A stretch of 43,234 nt of DNA from Thelocarpon superellum. Its lineage: Eukaryota. A program made the translations under genes and the position numbers. Positions 23,957 to 43,234 of the stretch are shown in pieces (position 1 is the stretch's first letter; every line of letters begins with the position of its first letter). The stretch lies in NCBI GenBank assembly GCA_026025795.1, contig JAPEUG010000009.1, forward strand, positions 62,001 through 105,234, given 5' to 3'. The notes below the pieces were generated by a model. That model saw only the letters and a program-made list of their open reading frames with translations, ran no database searches and was not told where the DNA came from.

Positions 23957-26590
23957 CTTATCATTGCCAAATAGCTGTGCCTATTCTCCGCCGTCATTGC
24001 ACGGATGGATGACGTACAGGAGCCCTGTTTACCGCGCTTCGCCCATTACAATTTCAGGTAGACGCGAGACAGAAAGCCTGGTGCCACATAAGGAGGGACT
24101 CAGCCTTGGGTGCGGGAGGTACGCGTACTGGAGGCCCTCCGGTACGAGAGCTATCTTATCTGTTAAGCGCCGCAGCCCCCGTACTGCGTTAGGCGAAGCT
24201 TCATCGGAAACACCGCCAGTAATGCTGGCGCCACCGACAGTTTGTGATTCGACCTTCTACTTTTCCTCAGCCCCAACAGCAGCTTGAGCGCCGCGGAGCA
24301 GAGTGACGTGGGTGACTGTTGATGGCAATGCTGTTCCACCTGTCTTCCACACCTGACTATGTGTCCCTGAACACAGAGCCTCATGGCAATCATGGGTTTC
24401 TCCCTCGTGGCCATGCCAAGGCACTGCCTCTTCAACCTTTACCGGTCTCTCGTCCAATACATCTGACACCACTCAACCGTTATGATGTGGTCGTGCCTGA
24501 TGCTGTGCTCTATGGCGATGTCTGAGTCTCCTCCTTGCCGAGTCTCTGCCTGCTGGCCGTGCCACGTCACCGCCTCATCAATCTGGGCACTTTCAATCAC
24601 GCGTGCTTCTTCACGTGCTTTTGATTCCCTTTGGTTCCCAGTCCTGGGTTGACGTGATCCGATGGGAATGACGGAGAGGGAACTGGATGACGATTTTACT
24701 GCCAGCTTACTTATTTCACTACGGCTAATTAGTATAATCTTTTCCCGAATGCGACCATTTCCCACCAAAAAACCTCGATCATTCGCATACCTCTGGTCAT
24801 CTGTCGGATGTACTCCAAATGATACGAGGCCCGGTAATCTTCTGGTATCTAGAGAGCTTCAACACATCAGTTGACGCGATTCGATTTTGGTTATACGTTC
24901 CTGGTTTCGCCCAACGTCGCTGCTTTAGCCAACCTCTCCGCTTCCAAATTTGCCAACATCCGAGCAGCGTCAGGGTGAACTGGATTTGACGTCCAGCGAT
25001 TTGAGGTGCCCCACGAAGAAAGATCCCTAACGATGGAGCAGTGCGAATCAGCATCTTCCCAAACATTGACGGACCGTAAAGTTGGGGTAATTATTGGCCT
25101 CTTGCCCATTAGCTCTACTTAGTGAAAGGGATCAGCCTACAGTGTTGAAGAGTCTCTGCCACGAGTAAAGGAGCGGGATTCCACTGCCCTTGCCAAGCGC
25201 CGTTCGTTTGTGACAGCACAAGTAACTCAATCGCCTCGAGAAGGGTGCTGTTCGCCCCCATGGCAAGATTCTCTCGCTGGGCCAATGTCGGCGATATCGC
25301 GCTCGGTGTTAGCAAAGCCAAGGTACATCCGCGTCCGGTGATATTTGCTGTATGTAAGGCGTAAGCGGCCGCTCCAGCCTGCTCCAAACAGGGCCTTGGA
25401 TGTCATCGCACGTATGATATCCGACGTGGCCATGGAGTTCTCTCGGTCCTGGGAACCCCCTACCGAGGCCATCACCCGGTTGAGCTTGACATCGGAGATC
25501 GGGATGACGCCGTGCGGGATGTCTTTCAAGGAAAATCGGCGAATTTGGCCTCGGTCGAGACTTGCAAGATGAGAGGTAGAAGCGCTGGCCTCGGCGTTTT
25601 GTCCGCAGTGGCTGTGGATGATGATCCTGAGACGGGTTCTAGAGGCGCCGGCCCCAGGTCAGTTTCAGTGGTGGCCGTGCTCGGTGGTTTGGGGCTGATG
25701 TGAGAAGGAGAGGCTGCAATAGCCAGCGGTGACGTTTTTGCTCTGCTGAAGTCGATTTGAAGGAGCAGTGGTGGGGGAAGTGGGACAGAAAAGGAGGCTA
25801 AAGCAATTTGTTCGTATTACTACTGGTGGATAGCTCACGGGGAGATCCCCCAACATGCGCGTGTAGATATCGTACTGTGGAGGCTCTATACAGGAGCTTG
25901 AGGCTTCTGAGTAAGCTGCCTCACATGACCCACAATAGCTGTATATTAGAACAACAGATAGCTTCTGTAGAATAGACAACCCATCTCCAGTGGAACAACC
26001 GGGGTGCGTCAGTACGCGCTTTCCGTCGACTCGCCCCGCACTTGGCTCGTTACTGTTACGGCGCCCTGTGCAGCCGTGGAAGTAAAGGTACGGCACATTT
26101 GACCTCGGCTAATCCAACAACCGCACCGAAACGTTTTCAGCCCCTTGGAACCACAGTCCACCCCGGGTATGAGACCGACGTGGAGAGGACTCGCACCACC
26201 CTGGTCGAGCGTTGTTAGATAGGGGCAGGTGTAGGAGGCCTATTCCAGGGTGCATAGTAGGAAGGGCAGCGGGCTGGAACTCGTGTGACTGGACACTAGA
26301 CCAGCAGAAACTCATCGTTGGGTGGTTCGATTCATTAGCACTTTGGTTCACGAGTAGACGTAAGAAGGGAAAGGCCCGTGACGCGGGGACGCGCCTCTGC
26401 TTGTACAATAAGAAATCAGACCTAATCGTCGGGGCGTCGGGTGATCTGCCATCTCCTAGTTACCAGTTGCAGCGTCTTTCGTTGTCATGTGGTGAAGTGA
26501 TATGAAATGGCATAGGCCAGGGTTCACGGCCATGAAGACGTCACTGCGGGGAAATCCTGCTTCGGACGAGATTCGATTGGTTATGATATC

Positions 26591-28303
26591 ATGTCTGCGG
26601 ACCTGTTCGCTGCCTTTGGCCTTCCGGGCTCTACCGGAAGAGAGGTGCAGGAGGAAAAGCAGGCGTCGACAGTACCCGCATCAGCTTCACTGCCTGACCA
26701 GAGTGTAGGAGCACGCGTGGGGGTGGGCGTGGTCGGCGAGGAAGACGAGGAAGACGGATGGGGAGATTTCCAGGCCGCGCAAGACCAAGCACACGATCCC
26801 ATCGACCATGCAGCCGACATCAGGACAACGGGAGCAGATGACGATCTTTTTGGACTCTCCACAGTACATGTCACCTCGGCACCGGTTCATGATGTGGGCG
26901 AAAGCGGCGGGACGTCTAGATATACCGCCCCGCATCCCGAGCCCGTCACGTTTGTGGAGCAGGTGTCGCAAGGGGTCGAAGTTCTCTTTGACGCCACCGA
27001 TGCCAAAGACGAGGAAGTTGATGACGCCCACGACGACTATGGTGATTTTGAGAGCGGATCACCCGCCAAGGCGCAGACGCAGACCGTGATCTTACCACCG
27101 GCACCGCTACCGGCACCGACGTCGGCCTCCGTGGATTTACTCGGCATCACTCCCGTGTCCTCACCCTACCCACAGCCGCCAAAATCGCCGTCATTTCGTG
27201 AACGAAATCCATTCGGAGATCTATCCGTGGCGACGAAAGCCGACACGCCCACCAAGACCCAAAGACCAAACGATGGCGGCGACTCCGCCACGCCCGTCAC
27301 AGCCTGGCCCAGCTTCCCCTCAGCCAAACCGGACGCGGCGCAAGAGGAATGGACCGACTTCCTTGACTCGCCCTTTAGCGTTACTCCTGGCGGCAGCGGC
27401 GTCAGGTCATCTGCGGCCTCGGAATGGACGCAGTCCGTACCCACGGGTACGGATATGCCCCTGAGATTGCCATCGAGACGAGGAACGCCAGCCCTGCCGA
27501 ATCGTCCCCGACCCGTCCGACGGTCGGAGAGCCGACCGTCAGCGGCACAACGGCCATCCGCGCTCTCCATCCCATTGACGACCGATGCGGCCGTGTGCAG
27601 ACCAAGCAATATCCCTCCGCCCTCCATCCTGCTCCTCTTATTCCCGCCGTTATTTAAAAGACCTCTAAGCACTGCCGTTGCTAGCATCAAGGCAGTGTCG
27701 GCATCATCTCTGCCATCCCAGTGTGCACCCACATCCTGCGCACTGGATCTTGATGGGCACGTCCTAGCAGGCACAACGGCCGCGCGGATAATCGCGGGAC
27801 GCAAGCACCGATGGAAGCGAGACCCGATCCTGGCGCAAGCGACGAAGATTGGCCCTGCGGCCTCCTCGAGCGGTGGACGCGGCGCCGGGATGAAGCTCAC
27901 GAGCGTCGACAAGGCCGAGACGGCACGCGAAGAGCGCGAGGTGGCCGAGGTGGTGGCGGCGTGGAAATTGCACGTTGGCCGCTTGCGCTCTGCCCTTGCC
28001 TCAGCCAGCACGGCCATCAGCACGGGCAGCAACGGCCTCTCCCCGTCCAACCGTACAAAGACAGCACAAGCCCTACCGGATCTCCAGGCGACGATACCCA
28101 TTACAGTAGCGACGGTAGGTAGCGGCGGCGGCATCTCTGCCGCCCACGCGTGCGCCCTGTGCGGCCTGAAGCGCGACGAGCGCGTCGCCAAAGTGGACCA
28201 TGCCGTCGAGGATTCGTTGGGCGAGTGGTGGGCGGATTACTGGGGCCATGTGGCGTGTCGTGCTTTTTGGGAGAGGTGGAGAGGGGAGCTGCCCCAGCGA
28301 TGA
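26591..28303 (+). CDS. Hypothetical protein (570 aa), largely disordered, with [W/Y]GDF, NPF and DLL short motifs and a C-terminal CxxC...HxxC putative Zn finger
   Basis: Long single-exon ORF with coding-like composition. MSADLFAAFG start; IIAGRKHRWKRD; CALCGLKRDERV...EWWADYWGHVACRAFW. Confidence 0.85.
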   Translation: MSADLFAAFGLPGSTGREVQEEKQASTVPASASLPDQSVGARVGVGVVGEEDEEDGWGDFQAAQDQAHDPIDHAADIRTTGADDDLFGLSTVHVTSAPVHDVGESGGTSRYTAPHPEPVTFVEQVSQGVEVLFDATDAKDEEVDDAHDDYGDFESGSPAKAQTQTVILPPAPLPAPTSASVDLLGITPVSSPYPQPPKSPSFRERNPFGDLSVATKADTPTKTQRPNDGGDSATPVTAWPSFPSAKPDAAQEEWTDFLDSPFSVTPGGSGVRSSAASEWTQSVPTGTDMPLRLPSRRGTPALPNRPRPVRRSESRPSAAQRPSALSIPLTTDAAVCRPSNIPPPSILLLLFPPLFKRPLSTAVASIKAVSASSLPSQCAPTSCALDLDGHVLAGTTAARIIAGRKHRWKRDPILAQATKIGPAASSSGGRGAGMKLTSVDKAETAREEREVAEVVAAWKLHVGRLRSALASASTAISTGSNGLSPSNRTKTAQALPDLQATIPITVATVGSGGGISAAHACALCGLKRDERVAKVDHAVEDSLGEWWADYWGHVACRAFWERWRGELPQR

Positions 28304-29994
28304 TGGGACCACGTCTAGGGAGTCCCGACCCGTTTACTCGTAGCTCGGTAGCGTTGAACACCACCTGGCCCCGTCGGACTGAGCGAGGGAGGGGGATGGG
28401 AGGAAGGTGGGAATGGGGTTTATTCGTCGTTGTAGGCCATAGCCAGCCGCGTAGGCCAGCGATGTTGGAATGGACAGGAGAGCGCGCAGGAGAGCGTATC
28501 TCCGCTCTGAACGGATCGGCCGTTTTATACTAACAGAAGGAGTATATTATCGACTTTGGAGAGGTCGGGATCACCTCAAGGACCGTCTGTGCCTCTCTAA
28601 GCCTCTAGACGTATCGGCTCACTAACTAAGATACTGACATACCACTATGCTAGTGTAGTGGCTGGCAGCTTGACCGTAACGTTACAAGGCCGACTGGAAG
28701 GCAGAATCGACCGACGACCGATGAGTCACGGAAGGACCTGTACCTGTACCGACATACTGGAAGGTCGGCTAGGAATCCAGAAAGGCCATCGGAGCAAGAC
28801 GAATGTGAGCGGCGACGACGACGACAATGACGCCTTCGACTCAAGATGGAAACGTAGCTCGTGACATAGCATACGCTTACGCTGATCGGTAACATTTCGA
28901 AAGGTCAAGGGGGTGGGATCGGAAAAAGCACGCACCACGCAATGCAAAACGCCCAGCTACATACCACCAACGCTGCTTGGTAAAATAAGGTGGCGTTTAT
29001 GTTGCGCGCCATAGTATGTTATTTATTCTACTGTACGGATCAGACCTGAAAACTAACATCTACTCGTACCTGAGATGATACATGGGCTTGCACGTGACTA
29101 AATAACGTGCGCGCCCTGACGCTAATAACTGCGTTTAAGGTCCAGCACGTCGCACGAGGCGCCGCTCAGCGATGATGTGTCGATCCTTACACGCGGCTCA
29201 AGCCACACACCACGGTCTGTTTTTATCAACGCGGTTTTTGCGTACCAAGTTGCAAGGCGGTTGATTCGTCAGCTTCTTCAAGAGCGGGGCTGCCACTAGT
29301 GTCCTCATGCTGCTCCTTGGCTCCCAATGGTGCAGTTGAGGATGTTTCCAGCGCCTACATGCGCATAGCTGCTCGATCACGCGTCTTTGCATATCGTAGG
29401 ATGGATGTTAACATGACCAATTCCATGCCTTGAGTCAGATATTGTCGCTGCTCAAAGTGAGTCACTTGACAAACGTATTAATACCCTGACCAACAAACGA
29501 GTAGTGGTCGTTCAATAACGCGACGAGTCGGTGCGCATCTGCCTGCTGTAACTGCAGGAACCGCATGATCTGTGAGTAACCAGCGATTACCGTACAACTA
29601 ATTGCATGATGTTGTTCAATTCGCAGCTGCTCTCACAGCTGCACTATATCTATTTGTAGAGATGCGAGAGCTTGCACGATAGCATCAACGCATTTCCGAT
29701 TCTAGCATATCGAAGGATTGCCATCGACAGGACAAGTTTTGCGGGATTTTCTTGCAATTTCTCGCATCATTGAGCCTGGCTGGCCGTCATGGCAATAGGG
29801 CGCCATGCTTGGTTGCCGTGTGTCAAGCTGAGGTGACGGAGCGGCAGACTCGAGCTACATAAAGCGTCGTCTACAGCCCATCCCCTTCCTCTGGTCCCAC
29901 AACAAGGGTTGAGTCCGCCTGATAGCTTGGTATCTTGCCTCCCAGTTCCCATCCACCTCTTGTCTAGGTCCTGACCAGCTATTCCACGGCAGCG

Positions 29995-30402
29995 ATGACT
30001 CGTCTCGCTATCGCGCTGGCCTTGTGGCTCGGTGCCATTCAGATCAACGCAACTCCCCAGGTCAACGTGGGAGCGCAAACCTTGAAGTAAAGTCTCGGAT
30101 CGCTCGAGTTTTAGACTCATGGGCTGTGGCTGATGATATTCTTTAGTGACGTGGTAAAAGGACGTGCGCCTCGTTACGAGCAGGTCTTCCTGATAAGTCG
30201 GGCTGAAGGCCAAAGTAAAGGGCTGCAGCTAACCACACTACCCAGTAGTGATATTATTGGATCACACTGCAGTCCCCAAGACCAAGGAAATTATCAGTGT
30301 TGTTCGAACTTGATGTTTGTCTCCTGCCAAAATGGATGGTGGACATCTGGTGATCGTCAATACAACGATTGGTGTGTGGCTGCTGGGGACGCTGGGACCT
30401 GA
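29995..30402 (+). CDS. Small secreted cysteine-rich protein (~115 aa), exons 29995-30086 and 30147-30402; possibly decaying
   Basis: ATG 29995 gives the signal peptide MTRLAIALALWLGAIQINA-TP. Intron 30087-30146 (GTAAAG..GCTGAT..TAG) joins in frame to the Cys-rich ORF ending HCSPQDQGNYQCCSNLMFVSCQNGWWTSGDRQYNDWCVAAGDAGT. Confidence 0.6.
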
Positions 30403-30959
30403 CCAAGCAGGAAATGGGATGCGATCACGTCGGCCCACTGGGTCGTTCTGAGTTAGCCATACTGGTGTAAGATAGCTAGTAACAGACCTTGGGTATATGA
30501 TGACTACGACTAGTAGTCATAGTAGTTATCATATACCCAAGGTCGCTCGTCACCCTCGTCCTTCTCGTATGGTGATCTTCGCAAGCCGACCGGAATCTCC
30601 ATCACGGCAGCACGTAGTATGGTGCAGTCTCTCAGGCTCACCGCTCTCCCTGCTTGTGTCAGGACAAGTCCAGCAATCTGGTTGGGCCTGTCACATGCCA
30701 ACCAGCGTCACTGGGCAATCATTCGTTTAGCTTGTGTCCCTTGCAATGGGACGGGCCATACTACTGTACGAGTACCGGACGAATGAGGTCTGGGGGCGGT
30801 TCATTTCTCCGTACCCGGCTGCAATGGCGTATCTGTGCCTGGGGCTCCCTATCTTGCACGTAATATTGGAAGGGAAAGTTCCAACTTCTCTGTAGGCATG
30901 AAGGGACCGCCTCCGTGCGCGGACCAATGGCGCCGAGGCGGGTCCCAGCGACCGGAGAG

Positions 30960-31225
30960 TCGTCTACGTCAGTCGGGCCTAACTCCCGGCGATCAAGCCT
31001 GGCCAGTTGTGGCGGGTCGTGTGGCTGGACCGCCCACCTATGTTGCCCTTACGCACTTTTGGTCTGACGGGATTCTCTTTTGGCCATCCATCGTCGGGAT
31101 TTGACCCACACCAGGATGGGTACGGGTACCCCAGTACAGTCGCTCTTGATGGCCCGCTAGATCTCTCACACGCTCTCCTGTCCCTTCTCCCCATTGCGCA
31201 CTGGTCCCTGGCGACGGCATCTTGA
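30960..31225 (+). pseudogene. Possible degenerate HET-domain (PF06985-type) gene fragment
   Basis: YVALTHFWSDG at 31039-31071 resembles the HET start motif YVAISHVWSDG. A second frame downstream gives STVALDGPL (cf. VLVLD..L). Broken by stops and frameshifts. Confidence 0.35.
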
Positions 31226-31302
31226 CGTGATGCACGTCGCGTCGTCATCTTCTGCATCGTGATTGACCCTGTTTCGCAATCCCATTTCGCGGGTGGCCTG
31301 CC

Positions 31303-33884: not shown

Positions 33885-35330
33885 ATGCCCTTTCTCTTCA
33901 CCCTCCCCACCACCTCGCATCTGTCGTTCCCCGACTATCTGCGGAGCGACTCGCATCCATCGCTGCCCTTCGAGGCGACGATCCATCGCGGCGTGCTGCG
34001 GGATACGCTGAAACGACACAAACGGCTGGACCGGGCGGCCCAGTCGACCCACCTACCCCATGTACTCGCGGCCCTCGAGGGATATATCCCGTACCTGTGC
34101 GCGCTGGACCAGGGCCTGAGCGCGGCCAGCGTCGCGGGCGAGGAGGTCGATGTCGTGCTCGAGCAGGAGGTGAGGGTGGCATGGCGTACGTCGCTGACCT
34201 CGACCCTCCCGGGTCGCGAGCCAGCCCGGGTGTCGTTGCGCAGCGTGGAGTATGAGATCTTCTTTGTCCTATCGACCTTGGCCTATACGCACACCTTGAT
34301 GGCACGGGTGCATCTGCACGCGCTCTACACCCCTACCACGCCGTCGGCGGCGCAACGACGTACCGCCATCACGGCGGCCACGCGAGTGCTCCTCCAGGCC
34401 AGCTCCATCCATGCCTATCTCCTGCGCCGCGGCCAGGACGCCACGGTGCCGCCTCCCGTGCTCGACCTCTCGCCCGCCGTGCACCGGGCGCTGGCGGCGA
34501 TGGCGCTGGCCGATGCCACCTTGCTTGCCGTGCTGCAAGACGACCCTTACCCCGTCGTGGTGTCGCAGAGCCGCAACGAGCACGATCACGAGTGGATGAT
34601 CAAGGCCCCCGACATCCCCCGGGTGCGCGCCCATCTGTTCGCGCGCCTCTGCCTGGCCGCGAGCGAGCACGCCAGCCAGGCGGTGGCGACGCTCGCCTCA
34701 ACTAGCGGCGTCGACGACAGCCTGCGCACCTATCTGGCCGGGCTGGTCAAGACAGCGCGGGGCAAAGCGTGTCGCTTCCTCGCGCTCGACGCCGACCTGG
34801 GCGGCAAGACGGGCGAGGCGATTGGCTGGGTCCGCGGCGGGGCGAAAGAGCTGGGCTTTGGCGGGGTGGCGGCTACGGCGGGGGAAGAGGACGGCAGCCG
34901 GCGATGGGCACGGTGGCGGCGGGCGTGGGACGAGAAGCGCGAGGACAAGAGGGTCGAGCGCGGCGGCGAGTGGGGTCTCGACGGCGGCCGGCTGGAGGAA
35001 GGCCGGGTGCTGGACATGTTGGAGGCCAAGTGGGTGAAGATGAACGACACCGTCAACACGCAGACCATCCCGCCCTCGACCACGCTCCTGGCGCGCCTCC
35101 CGTCCGGCCGCGAGATCCACAACGTGCCGCCGTACCCGCCACCGAGCCTCGACGCCGACGTGCTCGCTACGATGCGGTCGCCGCTAGAACCACGGGCGCG
35201 AGAACTATACGACGCGGAACACGGGGATGACGACGACGACGACGAAGCCGACGATCGCGATGGAGCCGGCATACCCGGTGCCTTTCCTGGGGCGAGCATC
35301 CGCTCGGCGTCCGGGACTGGATACTACTAG
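33885..35330 (+). CDS. palC: pH-response regulator PalC (Bro1-like domain)
   Basis: Start MPFLFTLPTTS (ATG 33885; the upstream extension to 33717 is probably not coding). Motifs RGVLRDTLKRHKRL, YIPYL, DDPYP, EWMIKAPDIPRVRAHLFARLCLAASEHA, WVKMNDT and LPSGREI, plus the di-aromatic C-terminus (YY) characteristic of PalC. Confidence 0.93.
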   Translation: MPFLFTLPTTSHLSFPDYLRSDSHPSLPFEATIHRGVLRDTLKRHKRLDRAAQSTHLPHVLAALEGYIPYLCALDQGLSAASVAGEEVDVVLEQEVRVAWRTSLTSTLPGREPARVSLRSVEYEIFFVLSTLAYTHTLMARVHLHALYTPTTPSAAQRRTAITAATRVLLQASSIHAYLLRRGQDATVPPPVLDLSPAVHRALAAMALADATLLAVLQDDPYPVVVSQSRNEHDHEWMIKAPDIPRVRAHLFARLCLAASEHASQAVATLASTSGVDDSLRTYLAGLVKTARGKACRFLALDADLGGKTGEAIGWVRGGAKELGFGGVAATAGEEDGSRRWARWRRAWDEKREDKRVERGGEWGLDGGRLEEGRVLDMLEAKWVKMNDTVNTQTIPPSTTLLARLPSGREIHNVPPYPPPSLDADVLATMRSPLEPRARELYDAEHGDDDDDDEADDRDGAGIPGAFPGASIRSASGTGYY

Positions 35331-35597
35331 AGGAGTGACAACAGATTCGGGCATCAAATGCTAGAAGAAGAGAAAAGTGAAAGAGACGATGACACGACAT
35401 AAGTACAACCGGTCTGCGATCAAACATGTCCCACCCTGCTCCACGCCATCCGGCCTTCACGGAGCTGCGTCGAGATGAGCCTGTGCTTCCTGGTTCTTAC
35501 CGCATCGATGCGACTCCTCTGCCAGGCGCGATTCATTCTGGTCTGTCTCCGTGGTTGTATGCACCGACTCCACACACCCAGTCCGCCCGACCACCTC

Positions 35598-36362
35598 CTA
35601 CTCGCGCCAGTGGCCGTGGGGACCATCGCCGGTGTTGCGGTGTGCCGAGACGTACGAACTCGCCGGTGCTCCGGTGCCACCGCGCGCAACGATCTCCTCG
35701 CTGCGCTCTTGGTGGTGGTGACCGCCCCATGAATCACCGGGCGCCCCAGCGTCTTCGTGGTGGTCGCCGTCGCGGTGTGCCGAGACGTACGAACTCGCCG
35801 GTGCTCCGGTGCCACCGCGCGCAACGATCTCCTCGCTGCGCTCTTGGTGGTGGTCGCTGTCGCGATGTGCCGAGACGTACGAACTCGCCGGTGCTCCGGT
35901 GCCACCGCGCGCAACGATCTCGATGCTGCGTTCATCGTGATGATGACCACCGCCCCACGAAGGACCGACCACACCGTCCTCGTGGTACTCGGTATCGCGG
36001 TGGGCGGAGACGTACGAGCTCGCCGGTGCTCCGTCGCCGCCGCGCGCGGCGATCTCACTGCGCTCGTGGTGGTGGTGACCCCCCCACGAAGAACCGGGGG
36101 GCCCACCATCTTCGTGGTGGTCGTTGGCATGGATTCCAGGGCCGTACGCATCTCCGGGACCGGAAGAGCCGCGACGCTCCATCATCTCTTCCTCACTTCG
36201 CTCGTGGTGGTGATGGCCGCCGCCCCACGAGGGACCGACGACACCATCCTCGTGGTGATGGTTCCATGAGGGGCCGACGACCCCGGGGGCGGGGGCCGGA
36301 GCCGCGGCAACGAGGGCCAGCAGGGAGGAGAGGGCGACGACGGTAGAGCTCTTGACGAACAT
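35598..36362 (-). CDS. Secreted His/Gly-rich tandem-repeat precursor protein (KEP-like peptide precursor), 254 aa
   Basis: Signal peptide MFVKSSTVVALSSLLALVAA-AP, followed by repeated modules (GVVGPSW, GAPASSY, HHHxERS, IVAR|GG). Single exon. DNA repeats 35637-35719 and 35772-35854 are identical. Confidence 0.85.
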   Translation of the reverse strand: MFVKSSTVVALSSLLALVAAAPAPAPGVVGPSWNHHHEDGVVGPSWGGGHHHHERSEEEMMERRGSSGPGDAYGPGIHANDHHEDGGPPGSSWGGHHHHERSEIAARGGDGAPASSYVSAHRDTEYHEDGVVGPSWGGGHHHDERSIEIVARGGTGAPASSYVSAHRDSDHHQERSEEIVARGGTGAPASSYVSAHRDGDHHEDAGAPGDSWGGHHHQERSEEIVARGGTGAPASSYVSAHRNTGDGPHGHWRE

Positions 36363-38784
36363 GATGACGGGCTTGCGATGGGAGAAGGAAGGACGGACGG
36401 AAGGAGGAGAAGGATGTCAGTCTGACGTGAGGTGCGCCTGGGTGGAGGAAGGCTGAGGCTTCGGACCGATGGATACCAAGGTGCGATGGAGACGGAGACG
36501 GCGGGTGGTAGACAAGGTGACGGGCAGGGCGGAGCCACGTGGGGGGTATTTAACCCGAGCGAGCCATCGCGACAGGGCGACGGGCAGGATAGAATCGGAG
36601 ACGGGCATGCGGTGGGAGGCGGCCATCAAGACCGCCGGCCAGCCGGCGACATCCTTCGGACCAGGCCATCATGTCGGCTCCACGCCAGCGGAGGAGGGCA
36701 GGGTGGCCAGGAGAGTCTGACGGGTCGGTGTTTAAGCCCAAGATAGCATATGGGCATGCATCCTCCTAACCTTGGAGGTAGAAGCTGCGCACGCCGAGAT
36801 GATCACAGGCGAGAAGGTTGCTGGTGAACGAGACGCATGAGGGCAATGTGCCCTGCACTTTCCCCTTGCGGACGTCCAGGTCCTCGCGCTAGCCGTCATA
36901 ATGCGTGACCGTCCGGACGGCGAATGCGGGCACGGCGTGAACGCCCAAGCGCCCGAATCTGCTCGGCTGCCGCCGCATGAGCTCCGATGATGAGCTGACC
37001 TGTGACGGGGAGCCACGGTCAACCACGCTGTTTTGCCAGGCAGGGATCCTCCGAGGACCAGAAGGATGGCAGACGAGGGAAGGATTGGCGGCGATGCGCT
37101 CGGCGGTCCCTGTCATGCCTACCGCCACCCCGACCTAGCCGGACCGCGGTGCTGCAGCGAATGACAGGCCCACCCCAGCACTGGTTCGCGGCCACCGCGG
37201 CCCAGCCGTTGTGCGTCGGCGCCCCATGGGTCCCCGTCCCCTAGCACGGGCGCCGATCGCGACAAGTTCACAGGCCATCGCCCACAGTGTGCCGCGTCCC
37301 CTGTCCACGCCATCCTCCACCACGGACGCGAGTCTTCTCGAAGGCCCGAAGAAGGATGTCCGGGCGCCTAGCAAACACTCGCCATCAAGCCTCCGCCAGT
37401 ACCGGCGCTCGTCTACAAACTTCTCGTATGCAGCTTCCGGTCTCTTCGTGACTCGCCTGCCCAACTGCCCAGTCCGAATATTCATGCGAATCGTGCGACT
37501 TATGCGACAGACACATGATTGGCCGACCGCGACGGTGGCCGCCATCGTGGCCGGTTCACGGAGGCCGACGGTCGTCGGCATGCTGCCATGCTTGGCCGCA
37601 TGAGATCCTGGAGAAAGTCGCCAACCGCTCGAATGCCTTCGGTGCATCCCCGTCTCCACCCCTGTCGTGAGTGCTGACGCCGGGTCGCCGGGCAAGATCG
37701 CGTCGACCCTGTTGCCGGCGCCCGTGACCTGGTCCTTGCGTGCGCTGACGACGATCATGAACGGGCCGGTGGCGCATCGGATTCGGCACGGGACGAGGTG
37801 TCGGATTACGTACGCGCGCAGAGAAGTCATGCGAGTAACTGCCGCATCATGCGAGCACTCGGTTTTGTAGTCACCACGGCCAGGTCGTTCGTCGTCCCAC
37901 CCTGCTATCTCTTCGTCGTCGCACGGTGTTCACCGTCCCCTCCGTAGAGAGGCGCTCGCTCTCGCTGACGCTGAGGCGAGACCGACCGGAGCAACGGGGT
38001 GGGAGGATTCTCGCCGTAGTGGCCGAGGTGTGCAACTCCTCGGTCCGCTATCCGATACGGTCCAAGCGTGGTTCGAGCCCTGCTACTGGGAGGGTAGTAG
38101 TCCTCGTACTATCCCACCCAGGACCACCTGAGGTCTACTTGGTAGGAGCAGAGAGACATGGCGATACGCCCGTGACCGGCACACGGTGAACGTCCCTCGC
38201 CGCGTCGAGGGCGCCAATGGAGAGCCGAGCACCGGCCCCCTTCCCCCGGGGCCAGCACGAGCCACAGGCGACAAGCCTCCGCTCCCCCAGCGGCGTAGTC
38301 GGTCCATGCCAGAACGGGGCCGTGGGCCAGGACCACGATGCGATACCGACCACTTATGCCACCGCTCCACCGGACCAAGAGCGTGGATGAAGCAACTGCC
38401 ATCGATGACCCGAGAGCCTAGGGCTGATTGCGTGCACGACCATCACCCTTTCCAACACCAACGCCCGGCTTCTGCTCCCCGCCATCGTACCGTCGTCGAC
38501 GTGAGCGCCCTGGCGTCATCTACCGACACCCGACCGTCCGACCCACCTTCCTATCCCATCCGATCACCCCCACCTTGAGGGTCGTACATGATGGCGATAA
38601 AACGGGTCCATGAGCGCCGAGCTCAAGGCCCCGCTCAGAGCCGAGCTCAGGGCATATCTATTTCTACCGGTGCACGGTTGTACACCATCCTCGCCTGTCC
38701 GTCTCCATTGTTGTCCTTCTCCTTCTCTTTTGGCTTGTCCTTATCGCTCCAGTCGTCTCCCATTCCTGCTCGCGTGTCACCGTC

Positions 38785-41161: not shown

Positions 41162-43234
41162 ATGACAGCAATTGATTCAGTCAAGATGCCAAGTCTAAAG
41201 CGTGGCGCAGAGGAGGCCACCAATGGAGTCTCAAAGAGATTGAAAGCCGAGTCTCAGATCCAGGGCAGCTTTGGAGAGGGACTATTCGAGGACGAGACCC
41301 TTCAACGCCACACCCACACATATGCCAAATCGGAACCGTACGTGGTCATCGTCACGACTGCACAGGTCCACCGCTAATTCTTTCCTGCAGATTCAAACAT
41401 GGCGTCATCCCCAACCTTATCGATCCCTCCCTGCTCGCGTCCGTCCAAGGGGAGATCAAAAGTTCGCTTTCATTCACCCCCAAGGAGACAGACATCTACA
41501 AGATCCACCAGAGCGGTGATCTGGCGAACCTCGACGGGCTAGACGACGCATCTTTATCGCAACTACCATCGCTCCTGAACCTCCGCGACGCCTTGTACTC
41601 GCCGGCCTTTCGAACCTACCTCTCGACCATCACAGCCGCCGGACCGCTCTCGGGCCGGAAGACCGATATGGCGATCAATGTGTACACGCCCGGATGCCAC
41701 CTCCTGTGCCACGACGATGTCATTGGCAGTCGAAGAGTCAGCTACATTCTGTACCTGACGGATCCAGAGCATCCGTGGCGCGAGGAGTGGGGGGGTACGC
41801 TTCGACTCTATCCGACGCAGAGCGTGACGACGAGTGATGGCCGCACGACCAAGACGCCGTCGCCCGACCACAGCGTCAGTATTCCTCCGGCGTTTAACCA
41901 GCTATCCTTCTTTGCCGTTCGGCCTGGAGAGAGCTTCCACGATGTGGAGGAGGTATATGCCCCCGAAGAAAAGCAAACGGCCGAACAGAAGCAGAAGGTC
42001 GACGAGAAAGGTCGCATCCGCATGGCCATCAGTGGCTGGTATCACATCCCGCAAGAGGGCGAAGAGGGATATGTGGAAGGACTGGAGGAGCAGTTGGCGG
42101 AGAAGAGTAGCCTGGTGCAACTGCAAGGAACGGGAGACGAACTGGATCACCCGCGATCACGGGTGCAAGAGTACGTGGGGGAGGTCAGCATGGGGGAGAA
42201 GGGGGCAAAGCCGGAAGAGGATACGGAGACGGGGACACTGTTGGAGCACGACCTCGACTTTCTCTTGACCTACCTGGCCCCGACGTACCTAACCCCAGAC
42301 ACGCTAGACGAATTAGCGGAGTTGTTTTCAGAAGAGTCGTCGCTCCGACTGGACAATTTCCTGAGCAAGAAATTTGCCGCGCGAGTGCGGAAATACGTCG
42401 AGAGGGAAGAGAACACGGCGTTACCATCGACCACGGCCGACGTTGAGACCACAACGGAGTGGCGCGTGGCTCGACCTCCACATAAGCACCGATATCTCTA
42501 CCAACAGAATGCTCCACTTTCACCTCCATTGTTACCATTACCGTCACCATTGCCAATACCAGCACCATCAACAACGGGACATTCCAAGAAGCCAGCGACG
42601 CCCACCAACCCAATGCGAGAAATAACCGACAAACTCCTCCCTTCGCGCGCATTTCAAAAATGGCTCTCCCTAGCCACGGGGGTGCAGATCAAGTCGTACC
42701 AGGATCTTCTCGCGCGACGCTTTCGGCGCGGCGTCGACTACACTCTCGCCACTGGGCTCGGCGACGGGGTTGCTCGTGTTGAGATTGGACTGGGACTGAC
42801 TCCTACTTCTGGATGGGAAGGCGGAGAAGATGATGAAGACGGGGAGGGTAAAGGGGAAGGGGACGTGGAAGGGGAAGGGGAAGAAGAAAGAGGGGGAGTA
42901 GGCGGCCACGAGATCTACATGGCGAGCGACGACACTTCTTCTCATCCCACTCACCCCACGTCGTCCTCTTCTACAGGGGCAGTCGCGGACCCGGCTATCT
43001 ACAGCAGCGGCCGCAGCCGCAGCGGCACCACTGGAGGAGAAGCGGAGGACGATGACGATGATGGGATCCTGATGAGCACACCCCCAACGTGGAACAAACT
43101 AAACATCGTCCTGCGCGACCAGGGTGTGCTCAAGTTCGTCAAATACCTCAGTCGCTCTGCCCCCGGGGATCGGTTCGACTGCGTGGGCGACTTTGGGTTT
43201 GATGATTCTGCCGATTCTGACGATGTTTCTGGGT
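41162..43234 (+). CDS. TPA1: Prolyl 3,4-dihydroxylase TPA1/Ofd1 (2OG-Fe(II) dioxygenase); exons 41162-41337 and 41391->43234, truncated by the window end; start may be 41186
   Basis: Intron 41338-41390 (GTACGT..GCTAAT..CAG) gives SEP|FKHGVI. Motifs KETDIYKIHQSGDLANLDGL, HLLCHDDVIGSRRVSYILYL (HxD), SFHDVEEV and RMAISGWY, and C-terminal-domain PPHKHRYL, ARRFRRGVDYTLA, WNKLNIVLRD and LKFVKYLS. Confidence 0.95.

Follow-up and report, generated by a model that had tools for sequence, protein, structure and literature searches.

The question raised by this locus is whether a secreted, internally repetitive protein (P0001), encoded in a window of 43,234 nucleotides, is a precursor of peptides, and of which. 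In the initial annotation it was read as a new fungal precursor system of ten aromatic-terminated heptapeptides, possibly cross-linked through Trp or Tyr. That P0001 is a secreted multi-unit precursor, cut at one RR and several single Arg, was supported by its sequence as probable. Ten cross-linked heptapeptides were a weak overall reading, in which the His content had been missed. P0001 may instead work like a Kex2-processed repeat protein (KEP) that is cut mostly at single Arg and yields linear His-containing peptides, a proposal to which we give about an even chance.

Gene and genomic context

P0001 has 254 residues and a stop codon in an unbroken minus-strand frame, and its gene was found once when the genome contigs (19.2 Mb, 797 contigs) were searched with the protein and the DNA. 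The window forms the terminal part of contig C787, and the contig sequence stops 6.9 kb from the P0001 start codon. The host belongs to an isolated lineage of filamentous ascomycetes. The best four relatives of the adjacent PalC, among 120 of 1,131 matches listed, were 56–61% identical (Geoglossum, Caeruleum, Sclerophora and Trichoglossum).

The gene is flanked by PalC (33885–35330) and a lipase gene on one side and by an amino-acid transporter gene and Tpa1/Ofd1 (41176–43234) on the other. The remaining identified genes of the window were housekeeping genes by Pfam scan of 30 frames, and no protease gene adjoining the P0001 gene was found in the window frames scanned. The P0001 and transporter genes are divergent; the ~2.2 kb between them (36363–38600) holds no recognised gene, gave no Pfam match in 6 frames scanned, and may carry control elements shared by both. 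A CT-rich run lies just 5' of the P0001 ATG.

Three further observations were made in the window. An open frame of 595 residues at 26516–28303 is acidic and Pro-rich with Cys and His in its C-terminus, and had no Pfam match. A 3 kb stretch of lower GC (0.51–0.58; 28300–31300) without a long frame separates the lipase gene from an unnamed ORF. A ferric reductase-like gene (PF01794, PF08022, PF08030) was found at 294–2400; at 33 kb from the P0001 gene it is too distant to support a link with metal uptake.

Organisation of the repeat protein

The N-terminus of P0001 has the basic-hydrophobic-small layout of a signal peptide by eye, with 11-residue hydropathy up to 2.27, in agreement with the annotated signal peptide. 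Every motif listed earlier was recovered in the translation (GVVGPSW three times, GAPASSY four times, GPPGSSW, GAPGDSW, SGPGDAY and a C-terminal DGPHGHW), as were four Trp units within one residue after HED and the five spacers. The chain is free of Cys and has a single Lys, at position 4. Of its 234 mature residues, 31 (13%) are His; Thr is found only 6 times, and a hydrophobic C-terminal anchor is absent. Coordinates are given in Table 1.

Table 1. Positions of P0001 features and of neighbouring signals in the window.
Feature	Position	Strand	Basis
CDS of secreted repeat protein P0001, single exon, 254 aa	35598..36362	minus	Translation and ORF list
TATA-like box, 185 bases 5' of ATG	36547..36553	minus	Consensus likeness only
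RNA-library match, common to 3' ends of PalC (+) and P0001 gene (-)	35391..35577	undefined	One 187-base metatranscriptome contig, no mismatch
Signal peptide, residues 1-20	36303..36362	minus	Hydropathy; cut after Ala20 predicted by eye
AP-AP-AP, three X-Pro dipeptides	36285..36302	minus	Translation; Ste13-type trimming predicted by the XP/XA rule as given in PMC6339444
Trp-type GVVGPSW, copy 1	36264..36284	minus	Motif and codon comparison
Trp-type GVVGPSW, copy 2, preceded by HED, then GGGHHHHER	36225..36245	minus	Motif and codon comparison
Acidic spacer 1 SEEEMMERR, sole dibasic site	36171..36197	minus	Motif listing
Divergent Tyr-type 14-mer, residues 65-78, holding SGPGDAY, His at end	36129..36170	minus	Motif listing
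Trp-type variant GPPGSSW, then GGHHHHER	36084..36104	minus	Motif listing
Acidic spacer 2 SEIAAR	36042..36059	minus	Motif listing
Tyr-type unit GGDGAPASSYVSAH-R, residues 108-122	35997..36041	minus	Copy comparison
Trp-type GVVGPSW, copy 3, then GGGHHHDER	35955..35975	minus	Motif and codon comparison
Acidic spacer 3 SIEIVAR	35907..35927	minus	Motif listing
Tyr-type unit GGTGAPASSYVSAH-R, residues 153-167	35862..35906	minus	Copy comparison
Acidic spacer 4 SEEIVAR	35817..35837	minus	Motif listing
Tyr-type unit, residues 183-197	35772..35816	minus	Copy comparison
Trp-type variant GAPGDSW, then GGHHHQER	35727..35747	minus	Motif listing
Acidic spacer 5 SEEIVAR	35682..35702	minus	Motif listing
Tyr-type unit, residues 228-242	35637..35681	minus	Copy comparison
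C-terminal DGPHGHW-R-E, sole aromatic with Arg directly after	35601..35627	minus	Copy comparison
Span with five His-tract + ER sites (Arg 55, 101, 145, 175, 220)	35703..36215	minus	Best single-Arg Kex2 candidates

Trp-type units are laid out as (H)ED-G-x(4-5)-SW, followed by GG(G), a His tract and ER. Tyr-type units consist of an acidic spacer ending in IxAR, then GG[DT]GAPASSYVSAH-R, then a variable His/Asp stretch to HED or QER. A heptapeptide core suits the Trp type, in which GVVGPSW is invariant in 3/3 copies and removal of AP-AP-AP would expose its Gly. It does not suit the Tyr type, where conservation extends across VSAHR and is lost beyond its Arg; what is conserved is therefore a 14-mer with an internal Tyr and His-Arg at its end. 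Calling the units aromatic-terminated was a choice of unit boundary, because one must go 5 to 28 residues past each of the ten aromatics to reach an Arg. IxAR is conserved between copies as strongly as the motif behind it and does not drift as a throw-away spacer would. Internal repeats of at least 8 residues, each shorter than 100, occur at least three times, as in the KEP repeat criterion.

A single-sequence AlphaFold2 model had a mean pLDDT of 49 with no residue above 70, and showed paired strands in each of the four Tyr-type repeats; the Atlas confidence was 0.47, with no confident fold. A fold search with the model returned nothing at E <= 0.001, and its top row (amyloid FapC, E 2.9) was rejected as noise. 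The only Pfam match, DUF3678, was rejected as a composition artefact, 0 stretches passing alone.

Evidence for a real gene

Judged by variation between repeat copies, the ORF is a real gene. In the two best-aligned blocks, 11 of the 14 variable nucleotide columns are third codon positions. The Tyr block (19 codons, four copies) had a pN/pS of 0.22, and in the antisense reading the relation was reversed (pS 0.03, pN 0.10). The three GVVGPSW copies vary silently in 5/7 codon columns with 0 residue changes; the five HHxER|S copies vary silently in 4/6 columns with a residue change in 1; and the four VSAHR copies are invariant with 3/5 codons silently varied, while all 4 columns past the Arg vary in residue. 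Because the copies are few and related, these counts are indications and not formal tests. Ser-Trp/Tyr occurs 9 times against a shuffled mean of 1.3 (0/100,000 shuffles reach 9) and ERS 5 times against 0.16 (0/100,000 as many), figures that overstate the case, since repeat copies are not independent and tandem duplication alone inflates motif counts. Selection between copies is the stronger test.

That the frame is open by chance within a GC-rich tandem repeat, or is a relic that is not translated, is barely credible beside these data. Plus-strand frames are also open across much of the repeat, and the exact P0001 protein was missing from the 15-billion collection in which its neighbour was present; against this stand the silent-site bias in the P0001 frame and its lack in the antisense frame, the signal peptide, the TATA-like box, the CT-rich leader and 254 codons without a stop.

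The 187-base metatranscriptome contig (Table 1) was found in runs X1 and X2, the same contig at the same depth in both. Its interval is also the PalC 3' end, so it is no proof that the P0001 CDS is transcribed; contigs over the CDS were found in neither run, which speaks neither for nor against transcription. The two runs differ in label and year but have identical contigs and depths here, and may be a single data set deposited under two entries.

Predicted processing

In the proposed route P0001 would enter the ER and shed residues 1–20, a Ste13-type peptidase would strip AP-AP-AP to expose the Gly of the first GVVGPSW, Kex2 would cut after HHxER and after IxAR or RR to release the spacers as discard, and Kex1 would take off the terminal Arg; ring closure has no part in it. 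Cuts at ER, IxAR and RR would give six linear, His-tailed peptides of 22–37 residues with 3–7 His each and a Gly/Pro/Ser-aromatic head, and five spacers of 5–7 residues. If the weaker SAHR sites were cut also, four 14-mers GG[DT]GAPASSYVSAH and acidic His-tailed Trp peptides would result. Across all cut schemes the best reading of the sequence is that the products would be linear, Gly/His-rich and 14–37 residues long. The predicted peptides are acidic to neutral (computed pI 4.7–7.0).

Only 1 of the 16 Arg is in a dibasic site, and cutting there alone would leave a 190-residue piece. The KEP definition of Umemura requires at least 3 repeats between KR, KK, RK or RR (as worded in PMC7329392), and Le Marquer et al. 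use like dibasic logic (as outlined in PMC6339444). The initial annotation was right that KR-based screens could miss P0001, and dibasic screens would; a precursor of this kind is invisible to both large KEP surveys, as both need dibasic sites.

Candidate sites were compared with published Kex2 preferences. Outram et al. describe Arg at P1, a preference for aliphatic residues at P4, and Glu as one of the five leading alternatives at P2 (account in PMC8528282). In the matrix of Bader et al. (as presented in PMC2515848) His scores 0.73 at P4 and 1.00 at P3, and since every non-basic P2 gets 0, only RR counts in P0001; cleaved sites carry acidic or small residues on the prime side. With this matrix the P4xP3 scores were 0.20–0.73 at ER sites, 0.18–0.25 at IxAR and 0.11 at SAHR. 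The mean over all sites was 0.30 against 0.21 in shuffled sequences (923/20,000 as high), which is marginal. His, Lys or Arg was found at P1' or P2' of 0/14 Arg tested, against a shuffled mean of 4.6 (59/20,000 as low). P0001 sites thus match the motif as described in PMC8528282 and the prime-side pattern, and fail the basic-P2 rule as given in PMC2515848.

The genome encodes one Kex2-like gene, a Kex1-like membrane-anchored S10 carboxypeptidase and a Ste13-like membrane-anchored DPP IV; as such genes are general in fungi, they show only that the route exists. A further proposal, which we think quite unlikely, is that the His tract doubles as Kex2 P4/P3 element and metal-binding tail, P0001 being the first of a hidden, almost purely single-Arg precursor class. 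One gene would then release two families of metal-scavenging or metal-armed ribosomal peptides, and published KEP counts would be too low, above all in the little-sampled ascomycete lineage of the host. P0001 offers a compact test for cutting after His-His-x-Glu-Arg and Ile-x-Ala-Arg in filamentous fungi, as all product masses are predictable. Computed MH+ values include 2265.99 (residues 153–174), 3606.49, 3746.57 and 3829.63, with 1261.58 and 1275.56 in the case of SAHR cutting.

Homologues and synteny

No P0001 homologue was found by phmmer among 3,305 candidates of 139–445 residues (E <= 0.01), by a repeat-unit profile of the kind proposed in the initial annotation among 4,310 candidates of 82–2000 residues (E <= 10), or among 1.84 billion representatives (E <= 0.001). 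In metagenome contigs, 0/146 pattern matches were confirmed as P0001-like, and the best Atlas feature scores were 0.86 and 0.78 against a bar of 0.9. HMMER discounts biased composition, so these negatives are weak for P0001. Missing homologues are expected for a fast-changing precursor, and no sign of a new class, because the nearest relatives are ~60% identical in a housekeeping gene. KEPs without a homologue are common in the figures of Umemura (2,560 of 7,878, PMC7329392), and as such stand-alone KEPs are common, P0001 is ordinary in this respect.

Synteny was assessed in 80 metagenome PalC loci, 41 of them with at least 1,500 bases downstream. A P0001 match was found in 0/80, and a crude signal-plus-repeat filter returned 4 ORFs, none precursor-like. 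PalC and Tpa1/Ofd1 are linked in 3/80 loci of distant fungi (L034, L039, L046); a precursor is absent there, and other genes lie between the two or next to them. At L034 the interval holds what we take to be genes for a PEX5-like TPR protein and for a small protein resembling a complex I subunit, where the window has the precursor and transporter genes. This suggests that the latter two entered the interval later.

In text searches, five P0001 heptapeptides had no occurrence in the literature, nothing on Trp-ended ascomycete KEP signals was found in the literature since 2022, and no P0001-like precursor was found in the papers listed for His-rich Kex2 repeat proteins, judged by title and start of abstract. 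CEP and PIP are plant His-ended signal peptides; a likeness to them was dropped, as the P0001 His tails end in Glu and motif spacing differs. Term searches with six motifs found none in 3 supplements of PMC7329392 or 4 of PMC6339444, files which may not hold all precursors. Closer precursors may lie in the supplements of PMC9769878, PMC7329392 and PMC6339444.

Cross-linking enzymes and alternative products

A genome search for DUF3328 gave 3 matches, representing two genes, all on contig C130 and none on C787, so the earlier report of no DUF3328 gene in the window held for the whole contig. Tyrosinase matches were found on contigs C285 and C95; neither enzyme type is linked to the P0001 gene. 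The region at ~1450–6090 of C130 (locus L005) is a decayed dikaritin-type cluster in which a divergent pair of DUF3328 genes accompanies a small precursor-like gene in housekeeping surroundings. The precursor-like gene encodes SMWSY twice, each after an acidic stretch opening at a single Arg (one site ER), likewise without KR sites. It is interrupted by two stops and by a frame change in the signal region; no similarity to P0001 was found. With exons read by eye, DUF3328 gene one keeps both HXXHC motifs, the motif named for DUF3328 proteins (as described in PMC12048977), and has stops in its first two exons, and gene two has altered motifs and frame changes. Both look broken and no working copy was found in the genome; assembly errors or missing contigs are possible. 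The C787 end did not overlap bases 1–20000 of C130. Of the C130 ORFs, 0/71 matched the metagenome PalC loci, which gives no sign that C130 and C787 are old neighbours. Frames at ~14650–15270 of C130 (locus L006, 4655–5266) look by eye like DNA transposon remnants, presumably akin to pogo-type transposases.

These findings bear on whether P0001 is a dikaritin-type RiPP precursor whose cores are joined via Trp or Tyr by DUF3328 oxidases from other loci. Signal peptide, repeats, aromatics and ED ahead of Trp units fit such a precursor, the DUF3328-linked types of Umemura include some with HH or W+P motifs (in PMC7329392), and oxidase candidates exist on other contigs. The same source gives a mean DUF3328-precursor distance of 3.09 genes, a nearby DUF3328 gene in 22% of KEPs, and no enrichment of HH (5.7% against 3.9%) or W (20.5% against 24.5%) in DUF3328-linked KEPs. 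Neither DUF3328 nor tyrosinase genes lie on C787, and the C130 pair flanks an unrelated precursor of its own, all three genes having stops or frame changes. P0001 has an aromatic in a repeated core, with no DUF3328/UstYa gene nearby and no working oxidase found in the genome. We regard the cross-linking suggested in the initial annotation as very improbable, and P0001 is not evidence of a new cyclic-peptide or RiPP pathway. P0001 could instead remain largely uncut, as a His-rich wall or matrix protein, metal-binding or with EIVAR and SSYVSAH stacked as a beta-rich amyloid-like coat. The single dibasic site, the strand pairs modelled on four Tyr-type repeats, the undrifted IxAR and the His-rich secreted Rhizophagus proteins, proposed as metal binders (in PMC5293756), speak for it. 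The model, which keeps this alternative open and no more, stays at or below pLDDT 70 throughout and found no structural counterpart at E <= 0.001, and AlphaFold2 is known to fold repeat sequences into unreal beta-solenoids (as reported in PMC11795689). P0001 moreover lacks Cys and a hydrophobic C-terminal anchor and is poor in Thr, and Kex2 would have to pass over fifteen more Arg in contexts compatible with the enzyme; we consider an uncut protein unlikely. Trimming after Kex2 might also free linear Trp-ended heptapeptides (GVVGPSW and variants) as signals, like mushroom KEP peptides: linear GPPAPSW, QMRPPSW and QYKAPSW were detected as KEP products (in PMC9769878), GPPAPSW too comes after an acidic run, and GPPGSSW equals it at 5/7 places (301/20,000 shuffles equal, for a peptide picked post hoc). 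GVVGPSW is invariant between variable flanks, and AP-AP-AP stops exactly at its first Gly. In the mushroom precursors as described, however, Trp stands directly before Arg-Arg, as in 0/5 such Trp of P0001; an extra protease would be needed at Trp-Gly or Trp-Asn and another after HED, and the Pfam scan of the window found no protease gene beside the P0001 gene. This outcome seems improbable to us.

Possible functions of the peptides

Tracts of three to four His beside Asp or Glu suggest binding of Cu, Zn or Ni. If the His-tailed peptides are released, their tails may bind these metals extracellularly, as scavengers or in metal-dependent defence, a tentative proposal drawn from composition that is the likeliest of the uses considered yet falls somewhat short of probable. 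A role in signalling is rather doubtful and one as surface coat unlikely. The predicted pI is unlike that of cationic antimicrobial peptides, and the invariance of the aromatic motifs hints at a binding partner too. Metal binding, if real, would give a function to a peptide class with mostly undefined roles.

Comparison with known systems

Calling this a new system was too strong: for Coprinopsis precursors, published work (PMC9769878) already documents acidic spacers running to aliphatic-x-x-Arg, cleavage at single Arg, and linear ...PSW products. Like P0001, Coprinopsis cinerea KEPs 503649 and 434504 have a signal peptide, a repeated peptide and such a spacer, and they give linear products as predicted for P0001; Gly-Gly after the spacer is shared with 503649 only, and single-Arg cleavage is reported for 434504. 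Single-Arg products in Pichia are given for KEPs 490115, 497993 and 434504 (Vogt et al. 2022, PMC9769878). Unlike P0001, whose spacers open at His tract and ER, spacers of 503649 and 434504 open at RR or KR, and their peptides are basic and His-poor; the likeness is claimed without sequence homology. The Agaricomycetes KEP 447393 (GPPAPSW) and KEP 490115 (QYKAPSW) share 7-residue Pro/Ser-rich, uncyclised ...SW motifs after acidic or XP runs (as listed in PMC9769878). Their Trp right before RR ends the peptide, whereas Gly and then His follow in P0001, and the likeness between these basidiomycete proteins and an ascomycete one is of motif only.

The dikaritin precursors UstA, PhomA and AprA share a signal peptide, repeated aromatic-containing units and more than one unit type (as described in PMC7329392), and differ in that P0001 is without KR sites, linked DUF3328 or tyrosinase genes and any working DUF3328 gene found in the genome. 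Ascomycete alpha-pheromone precursors follow the Kex2/Kex1/Ste13 route proposed for P0001 and share XP dipeptides (as described in PMC6339444), which in P0001 occur once, after the signal; the Atlas feature match to such a precursor was 0.78, under the bar. P0001 lacks KR/RR with XA/XP before identical peptides: past its internal sites there is no XA/XP, there is no Cys pair or Pfam pheromone match, and its units are not identical. Ustilago maydis Rep1 is a repeat precursor of linear peptides kept outside the cell (as described in PMC8528282 and PMC3133707), as P0001 is proposed to be; the repellents are amphipathic and amyloid-forming, whereas P0001 units are hydrophilic and His-rich. Capsella shepherins I and II are Cys-free, Gly/His-rich antimicrobial peptides of 28 and 38 residues from one secreted precursor (as described in PMC4695807); that plant precursor yields two peptides and has no acidic spacers, and the analogy is in composition and size only. 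P0001 falls outside the published KEP definition yet is built like listed KEPs, and its single-Arg sites and His tails are a variant of the KEP design.
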